Virus record (IMG/VR): IMGVR_UViG_2734482790_000002
Source: a virus
Taxonomy: Duplodnaviria > Heunggongvirae > Uroviricota > Caudoviricetes
Direction: 5' to 3' (one strand)
DNA length: 45,103 nucleotides
Shown: positions 12,590-13,218 of the stretch, piece after piece
Position numbering within the stretch: the stretch's first letter is position 1
Layout: each line of letters opens with the position of its first letter
The notes under the pieces: model-generated
What the model saw: the letters and a program-made list of their open reading frames with translations, nothing else
What the model was told of the DNA's origin: nothing
Databases searched by the model: none
Program-made: the position numbers and the translations under genes

Positions 12590-12889
12590 TTATAAGAAAT
12601 CGGTTTCATAACTTTGCCCACCATGATAGATACCGACAATAAAGACTTTTCTGCTATCAACGGCAAAAGCAATAATCGTTCTGTGGCGGAAATGAGTTAC
12701 CCGCATCCCCTGGCGAATATCATCGCGTTTATTGCCCCGATGCGGGAATGTAGAAAACCCATCAAGATAATCAAGAAGCGCATTGGCATAATTGTCAGCA
12801 ATGACGTTCCCTGCTTTCTCCGTTATATACCTGTGCAGGTTGATTATTTGTTGTTCGGCCTCAGGAGTAATGATGACTTCATATGTCAT
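12590..12889 (-). CDS. parE: type II toxin, ParE/RelE family
   Basis: 99 aa; typical ParE/RelE size and pattern; immediately downstream of a RHH antitoxin gene. Confidence 0.8.
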   Translation of the reverse strand: MTYEVIITPEAEQQIINLHRYITEKAGNVIADNYANALLDYLDGFSTFPHRGNKRDDIRQGMRVTHFRHRTIIAFAVDSRKVFIVGIYHGGQSYETDFL

Positions 12890-12894
12890 GCAGA

Positions 12895-13152
12895 TTACTT
12901 CCCGGATCGAATCGCGGCGCGAACCTGTGAAATGGAGCGTCCGCTGTTTGGGTTTTCGCGGATAGAATCAAGAGAGGGGGCGGCTGAATGCGTTAACCAC
13001 GCTTCGATTGCTTTATCGCGCTCATTCAGTGCGCGAAGCCCTTCACGAATGACCTCGCTTTCTGAAGCATAGGCACCGGAAGCCACACGGGCGCGCACCA
13101 TGTCAGCCATTTCGTTAGTTAATGTAATGCTGAATTGTTGGGTTGTACGCAT
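12895..13152 (-). CDS. parD: type II antitoxin, ParD family (ribbon-helix-helix)
   Basis: 85 aa from the internal Met; FSITLTNEMADMVRARVASGAYASESEVIREGLRAL matches the ParD/COG3609 pattern. Confidence 0.75.
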   Translation of the reverse strand: MRTTQQFSITLTNEMADMVRARVASGAYASESEVIREGLRALNERDKAIEAWLTHSAAPSLDSIRENPNSGRSISQVRAAIRSGK

Positions 13153-13187
13153 GGTAAACCTCACGGAGTAGGATAGAACACCATTCG

Positions 13188-13218
13188 ATGATAGCACGTT
13201 GCCTGTTGACGACAACAG
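13188..13218 (-). promoter_or_regulatory. candidate parDE promoter with palindromic operator
   Basis: minus-strand TTGTCG - 16 bp - TATCAT; the palindrome CTGTTGacgaCAACAG overlaps the -35. Confidence 0.45.

Follow-up and report, generated by a model that had tools for sequence, protein, structure and literature searches.

A stretch of 45,103 nucleotides from a virus of the Caudoviricetes (IMG/VR record IMGVR_UViG_2734482790_000002), referred to here at its full length as the window, carries on its minus strand two adjacent genes, parD and parE. Here, the identity, control and origin of this gene pair were analyzed. The pair is an ordinary two-gene type II ParDE toxin-antitoxin cassette, one that has been publicly annotated before, and it is best explained as autonomous cargo that a Rac/CP-933P-like lambdoid prophage of E. 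coli carries in its nin region. Its weight as a toxin-antitoxin pair is small, since identical proteins are already named in RefSeq and PHROGs and the kind is well understood. Regarding its control, the operator worth testing is probably a 17-bp element of the form GTAGGAT...ATCCTAC, which is conserved across phyla in this ParD subfamily, and not the palindrome CTGTTGacgaCAACAG that overlaps the predicted promoter. Moreover, the natural neighbour of the cassette is the isrK/C4 RNA operon. The coordinates of all features are listed in Table 1.

The two genes lie in the order parD then parE with a gap of 5 nt on the same strand. The start codon of parD is ATG, and both open reading frames (ORFs) are intact with good ribosome-binding sites. 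The toxin matches the Pfam model ParE_toxin PF05016 over its full length (1-89/89; E=4.5e-10, 40.4 bits against a cut-off of 23). The antitoxin matches both ParD_antitoxin PF03693 (E=1.8e-7, 31.9 bits against a cut-off of 21) and TIGR02606, the model of ParD-family antitoxins (COG3609; E=1.4e-14, 53.8 bits against a curated cut-off of 46.2). In PHROGs, the toxin falls into phrog_5232, “toxin” (E=2.4e-43), and the antitoxin into phrog_6494, “antitoxin” (E=6e-56), while the toxin found no match in NCBIfam. In RefSeq, a protein identical to the toxin is recorded as WP_000220601.1, “type II toxin-antitoxin system RelE/ParE family toxin”, and the antitoxin as WP_047649213.1, “ParD family antitoxin”. 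A preliminary description of this DNA had named a ribbon-helix-helix (RHH) ParD antitoxin and a ParE-type toxin on the minus strand; because the ORFs, domain matches and PHROG matches agree, both its gene calls and its coordinates are correct. A longer antitoxin of 106 aa starting at TTG (12895-13215) was rejected as the gene, because the RefSeq protein and every homologue begin at MRTTQQ, preceded by GAGG. The three-component PaaR-PaaA-ParE type was likewise rejected: only two genes are present on the minus strand, and the antitoxin possesses its own RHH domain. The identity of the pair as ParDE, together with the general ParDE mechanism, is regarded as highly probable.

The toxin is of the ParE type as judged from its predicted structure, the fold being closer to that of ParE gyrase poisons than to that of RelE-type RNases. 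The AlphaFold2 model of the toxin (predicted local distance difference test, pLDDT, 84.6) comprises helices at residues 9-26 and 28-46 and strands at 61-67, 71-78 and 81-89. When this model was compared with the PDB by Foldseek, the top 23 matches were all ParE-family toxins of ParDE-type modules (TMq 0.62-0.71), originating from Mesorhizobium, P. aeruginosa, M. tuberculosis, V. cholerae and Caulobacter or belonging to PaaA2-ParE2, PrpT and PfiT, whereas the RNases YoeB, YafQ, RelE and HigB scored lower, at ~0.35-0.48. A profile of the toxin family retrieved ParE-type chains only from the PDB (6x0a, 5ceg, 7ycs, 8c24). Toxin homologues were aligned (n=26), and the core motif FP.RGN.RDDIR.G.R.THFRHRT.IAFAV is intact in the window. 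Furthermore, the sequence matches of the antitoxin in the PDB are ParD antitoxins (3kxe, 7ycv, 6x0a, 7b22, 8c24). Its model (pLDDT 89.5) displays C-terminal helices at 31-66 and 74-84, and its RHH part can be superposed at 1.0-1.6 Å on those of M. tuberculosis ParD1 and V. cholerae ParD2. Several points weigh against the overall explanation. The identity of the toxin to solved ParE toxins is low, at 11-24%; a literature search by protein accession found nothing on the toxin or the antitoxin; and neither protein matches the defence models of PADLOC-DB v2 at E<=0.01. In addition, PF05016 covers not only gyrase poisons but also a subcluster of true RNases, E. coli RelE among them (preprint 10.1101/2025.01.28.635273), so that the Pfam match by itself cannot decide between ParE and RelE and the gyrase target follows from similarity of fold and profile only. 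Taken with the RefSeq name, which says only “RelE/ParE family”, this mixture would be compatible with a toxin that, like RelE, cleaves mRNA in a ribosome-dependent manner and does not poison gyrase. Such an activity is, however, improbable in view of the much lower TM-scores of the RNases, the restriction of the profile matches to ParE-type chains, and a partner that belongs to the ParD family and not to RelB. Membership of RelBE was rejected on the same ranking, in which RelE-type structures come under all ParE structures, and on the match of the antitoxin to ParD. By analogy with the ParE family, the window ParE would be expected to poison gyrase.

For both proteins, the best matches in sequence and fold are Mesorhizobium opportunistum ParD3-ParE3 (5CEG, 6X0A), Caulobacter ParD1-ParE1 (3KXE) and M. 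tuberculosis ParDE1 (8C24). As in these solved complexes, the operon runs from parD to parE, the antitoxin combines an RHH N-terminus with a helical C-terminus, and the toxin, in its predicted model, packs an N-terminal helical hairpin on a three-stranded sheet. It differs from them in sequence, since to the low toxin identity given above is added an identity of ~23-36% in the antitoxin RHH, and also in that the window module is located in a lambdoid nin region and is known from sequence alone. PfiT/PfiA and PrpT/PrpA act in prophage or plasmid control. These ParE-fold toxins of mobile elements (9W3A, from a Pseudomonas filamentous prophage, and 7YCS, respectively) are among the top structural matches, but their identity to the window toxin is 16-20% and both host and element type differ. 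PaaR2-PaaA2-ParE2 (5CW7) of CP-933P in E. coli O157:H7 likewise includes a ParE-type toxin; CP-933P is a cryptic lambdoid prophage, and its immunity region is of the same racR/ydaS/ydaT type as that of the window (PMC9986795). The fold of its toxin is similar (TMq ~0.69), with an identity of only 16-17%. Unlike the window pair with its two genes and RHH antitoxin, that system has three components, in which an antitoxin without a DNA-binding domain is accompanied by a separate regulator.

The preliminary description had also given the module its own promoter, overlapped by a palindrome, which implied a ParD control site at that position. A sigma-70 promoter, PparD, is indeed predicted (TTGTCG-16-TATCAT with a TG extension), by consensus scan only, and CTGTTGacgaCAACAG lies over its -35 box. 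The implied control site fared less well, the palindrome being of chance size, placed on two -35 hexamers and unlike a 17-bp element linked to parD. This element was observed among relatives taken from one genome per species. There, 21 loci contain a relative of the toxin, 20 of which have a ParD homologue directly upstream, and the upstream regions were aligned by anchoring at the parD start. It can be observed that a 17-bp palindrome, GTAGGATTAAATCCTAC, is present 15-24 bp upstream of the parD start in 19/20 relatives, matching at 14-17/17 positions in distant relatives and at 12-13/17 in enterobacterial copies. It accompanies this ParD subfamily (loci L005-L022) in Beta-, Gamma- and Deltaproteobacteria, Acidobacteria and Actinobacteria. 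Seven loci of ~8 kb each contain the exact pattern GTAGGATNNNATCCTAC a single time, invariably at that place upstream of parD. In several loci, as read from the sequences, the left half TAGGAT follows a TTGACG or CTGACA box by 17 nt, and would therefore double as the -10 box. The N-terminal beta-strand of ParD reads MR(T/S)TQQ(F/M)SITL in all relatives and MRTTQQFSITL in the window; because it is near-identical, DNA specificity should be shared with the relatives. Reading of DNA by the RHH beta-strand is established for Arc, CopG and V. cholerae ParD2 (PMC10776004). In V. cholerae ParDE2 (7R5A), the ParD RHH of which is similar to that of the window (1.3 Å over 45-47 residues), autoregulation is achieved by ParD RHH dimers at short repeated promoter boxes (PMC10776004), and by analogy repression by ParD dimers at promoter boxes would be expected for the window module. 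The operators themselves differ, consisting of three GGTA boxes in V. cholerae and of a single 17-bp palindrome in the window family.

The predicted transcription start in the window falls within a degenerate copy of the 17-bp element. Overlap with the transcription start is the classical position of a repressor. A match to GTAGGATTAAATCCTAC of 11/17 or better is found at only 37 of ~90,000 window positions. One half of the copy, ATCCTAC, is intact while the other half is degenerate; close relatives read ATAGTGTTC(T/A)ATCCTAC at the equivalent place, compared with which the window has one further change. A point against this site is that binding of ParD could be weak, because the match is 11/17, the second half is degenerate and one change is specific to the window. 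The most likely candidate for the ParD operator, as far as sequence comparison indicates, is nevertheless the 17-bp element over the predicted transcription start, which is preferred over CTGTTGacgaCAACAG as a weaker second candidate. That the module is autoregulated by ParD bound to CTGTTGacgaCAACAG over the -35 box is conceivable but doubtful. The palindrome overlaps the -35 box of PparD and is kept exactly in the Salmonella copy (L004) and in three E. coli copies diverged by 6-10% while the neighbouring spacer varies, but its arms are reduced to 5 bp in ArgO145 and Stx2a phages, and the palindrome has one mismatch in Izhakiella and is degenerate in Yersinia similis. Its size is that expected by chance: perfect 6-4-6 palindromes number 19 in the window, and those with spacers of 0-8 number 163, thus ~0.5 would be expected in the 135 bp upstream of parD. 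The sequence itself (CTGTTGACGACAACAG) occurs once in the window. Furthermore, its inner TTG..CAA arises anyway from two back-to-back -35 boxes, and it is unlike the element found beside parD in 19/20 relatives that have the same DNA-reading beta-strand of ParD. CTGTTGacgaCAACAG is probably not the main control site of the module; it could be part of the divergent promoter or make an additional contribution to control. The hexamers of PparD are unchanged among the E. coli and ArgO145 copies, the spacer holding most of the substitutions, and the -10 box varies in more distant enterobacterial copies. When the 5' leader of parD was folded as RNA, no significant structure was obtained (z=-0.6). 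A RefSeq “hypothetical protein” of 43 aa (WP_001342258.1; 13188-13319, plus strand) overlaps the parD promoter region and the palindrome, and is probably a spurious call.

The paired loci are distributed over hosts ranging from Salmonella, Yersinia and Pantoea to Paraburkholderia, Polynucleobacter, Desulfovibrio, Terracidiphilus and Propionicimonas. An exhaustive phmmer search with the toxin yielded 1,145 clusters at 50% identity at E<=1e-3, and 218 at E<=1e-10; for the antitoxin, a word-indexed search gave more than 2,600 relatives. An intact and annotated copy of the toxin gene was found in 328 of 5,426 complete E. coli genomes, always on the chromosome and never on a plasmid. In comparison with the Salmonella homologue, the ratio of nonsynonymous to synonymous substitution rates (dN/dS) is 0.08 for parD and 0.11 for parE, and both genes are under purifying selection; the ratio against Izhakiella is saturated and unusable. 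The synonymous rate (dS) against the Salmonella copy (L004) differs threefold, at 0.32 for parD and 1.07 for parE, which suggests recombination inside the module. Most Stx2a-converting phages contain an orphan parD (86% aa identity, dN/dS 0.18; 61 phage records, for example L003 = LC727840, 1194-1960), and in place of parE, which is cut off after ~3 codons, they have one lipoprotein-like and one HigA-like ORF. The C-terminus of ParD is the region of greatest difference between the window and the orphan sequences. The orphan ParD kept by these phages could neutralise the window ParE, as an anti-addiction factor. In Yersinia similis (L015, 4001-4284) and Dyella nitratireducens (L019, 4001-4293), the parE homologues align in two frames, suggesting that parE is frameshifted there and that the toxin has decayed with the antitoxin retained.

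Such losses raise the question of whether the window pair is itself a decaying or inert remnant without current activity, as could be argued from the truncated parE and orphan parD of the 61 Stx2a phage records, from the apparent frameshifts in Yersinia similis and Dyella, and from the extra mutation in the window's copy of the 17-bp element. This is very unlikely when set against the state of the pair in the window, where both ORFs are intact with good ribosome-binding sites, the toxin core motif is preserved and dN/dS is ~0.1; the toxin sequence is moreover identical in phage ArgO145, and its gene is 99-100% identical in 215 E. coli genomes.

The region 12400-13400 of the window is 100% identical to E. 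coli RM11911. The element is a lambdoid prophage in which int, exonuclease, dicB, racR, ydaS/ydaT, a replisome organiser, DUF1627, DUF977 and HNH genes come before parE-parD. After the pair, which is on the opposite strand, come a hypothetical gene, DUF968, RusA, Q, lysis genes and terminase. Since the genes on either side are plus-strand genes, and the pair is located between the replication genes and RusA/Q, the earlier placement of the module in a nin-like region, antisense to the early-right operon, holds. The Salmonella copy matches the window over 12592-13235 and that of OkiPb01697 from 12591, limits from which a minimal cassette of ~12591-13237 is obtained, which takes in everything from the stop codon of parE to the divergent promoter, inclusive. 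In ~2,000 E. coli genomes, the match to the window is confined to the part that begins at 13238 and runs rightward, so that these genomes have the right-hand block without the cassette. In ArgO145 the same cassette is near int instead. The cassette behaves as mobile cargo. In both related prophages examined (L025, L026), the slot directly left of the hypothetical gene-DUF968-RusA-Q block is occupied by hokD, and in one genome hok and parDE are located side by side (L025, L026 and L029 compared). The hokD gene shares its slot with parDE, but hok/sok, a type I toxin-antitoxin system that pairs a membrane toxin with an RNA antitoxin, is related to it in neither sequence nor mechanism. Prophage Qin presumably has a relBE-hokD arrangement in the same nin slot. 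In prophages of E. coli, toxin-antitoxin cargo (parDE, hokD) recurs in the slot upstream of the hypothetical gene-DUF968-RusA-Q block, which looks like a hot spot.

The proposed mechanism follows established ParDE biology from RK2, Caulobacter, V. cholerae and M. tuberculosis. In the lysogen, parD and parE would be co-transcribed leftward from PparD (TTGTCG-16-TGcTATCAT). ParD dimers, or the ParD-ParE complex, would then bind the operator at the promoter through the N-terminal beta-ribbon and repress transcription, while the C-terminal helices of ParD would wrap around ParE and neutralise it. Should synthesis of ParD stop, the labile antitoxin would be degraded and free ParE would poison DNA gyrase, leading to arrest or death of the cell. 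The biological effect is most likely addiction, through which the prophage segment would be selfishly retained. A possible alternative, less supported than addiction, is that other phages are excluded. An anti-phage role through abortive infection or superinfection exclusion, in place of prophage stabilisation, is considered unlikely. The pair is a promoter-bearing antisense cargo in a slot where related prophages have other toxin-antitoxin genes (hokD), and toxin-antitoxin systems in general are documented in the literature as defence elements; yet the defence models of PADLOC gave no match, no ParDE-type precedent was found in the literature on toxin-antitoxin defence, and neither a trigger nor a sensor is evident. 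The parDE module is not discussed in the examined papers that cite ArgO145.

Beyond the palindrome, the five enterobacterial relatives (ArgO145, Stx2a phages, Salmonella, Yersinia similis and Izhakiella) have more than 250 bp in common, in which Rfam recognises isrK followed by the C4 antisense RNA, transcribed away from parD. The divergent promoter, in the form TTGACG-18-TATATT or TATAGT, is kept in 5/5 of them. In ArgO145, position 1 of the Rfam isrK model lies 7 nt after the TATATT -10 box of the plus-strand promoter, so that this second promoter is assigned to isrK/C4. In Salmonella, Yersinia, Izhakiella, ArgO145 and Stx2a phages, parD and isrK/C4 (P1/P4-like immunity/antirepressor) share a compact, back-to-back promoter region, in which both -35 boxes are covered by the palindrome. 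The isrK/C4 sides of related cassettes are located at 5807-6025 of L002 and 3462-3661 of L004, and their counterpart in the window at 13206-13243 (plus strand). A tRNA-like T-arm sequence upstream of parD in the relatives was rejected as a tRNA and is part of isrK/C4. In the window, neither isrK nor C4 was found at any position, and Rfam returned nothing for 12300-13700 even at E<=1. Homology to isrK-type loci fades at ~13218-13243, homology to cassette-less prophages begins at 13238, and the junction shows microhomology in a shared GCACG at 13239-13243. From these limits, the window copy was cut from its RNA-operon neighbour at the isrK +1 position. The orphaned promoter predicted on the plus strand now faces a 90-aa ORF at 13288 (13288-13560), followed by DUF968, RusA and Q. 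It is a long shot that the cassette represents half of a larger unit, in which one factor, ParD or another, acts at the palindrome to co-regulate the toxin-antitoxin pair and the RNA switch, and that recombination at isrK +1 re-aimed the promoter at the hypothetical gene-DUF968-RusA-Q block. If this were true, part of the prophage late-gene switch would be under toxin-antitoxin-linked control.

Table 1. Features of the parDE cassette and its left flank in the window, with positions counted from the first nucleotide of the window.
Feature	Position	Strand	Description
parE	12590-12889	-	99-aa ParE-type toxin of the RelE/ParE superfamily; PF05016, PHROG 5232 and fold matches
parD	12895-13152	-	85-aa ParD antitoxin with N-terminal RHH and C-terminal helices; PF03693, TIGR02606
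Shine-Dalgarno sequence of parD	13159-13162	-	GAGG, 6 nt ahead of the ATG; read from the sequence; kept in enterobacterial relatives
Degenerate copy of GTAGGATTAAATCCTAC	13168-13184		11/17; plus strand GTAGGATAGAACACCAT, minus strand ATGGTGTTCTATCCTAC; spans the predicted transcription start
Predicted sigma-70 promoter PparD	13188-13215	-	-35 TTGTCG (13215-13210), 16-nt spacer, extended -10 TGcTATCAT (13196-13188); consensus scan
Palindrome CTGTTGacgaCAACAG	13203-13218		Over two overlapping divergent -35 hexamers
Predicted divergent promoter	13206-13235	+	TTGACG-18-AATATT; orphaned homologue of the isrK/C4 RNA promoter; consensus scan
Hairpin resembling a bidirectional intrinsic terminator	12476-12509		Inverted repeat I1, between the end of the rightward genes and the 3' end of parE; in the flank, not the cassette

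The hairpin in the left flank folds in the minus-strand RNA at -20.7 kcal/mol and is followed by UUUUUU (z=-3.4). In the plus-strand RNA the value is -14.8 kcal/mol, followed by the U-rich tail UUUGAUUU (z=-3.1). Neither the Salmonella nor the OkiPb01697 copy of the module has it, and a simple terminator scan of 12300-13600 called nothing, this hairpin included. The hairpin is probably where the parDE transcript terminates, and it probably affects rightward transcription as well. In the same flank, a hydrophobic ORF of 27 aa (12382-12465, plus strand), the ATG of which overlaps the stop codon of the upstream gene (ATGA), is unannotated in the matching RefSeq record. ArgO145 and three other prophages of E. 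coli share this ORF along with the left flank, and it is possibly a small membrane protein. Farther to the right, a tRNA-Gly(TCC) lies at 18400-18472 (plus strand) between the methyltransferase and lysis genes, and a match to the Rfam family IS009 RNA (223.7 bits) lies at 44865-45063 (plus strand), near the right end of the window.

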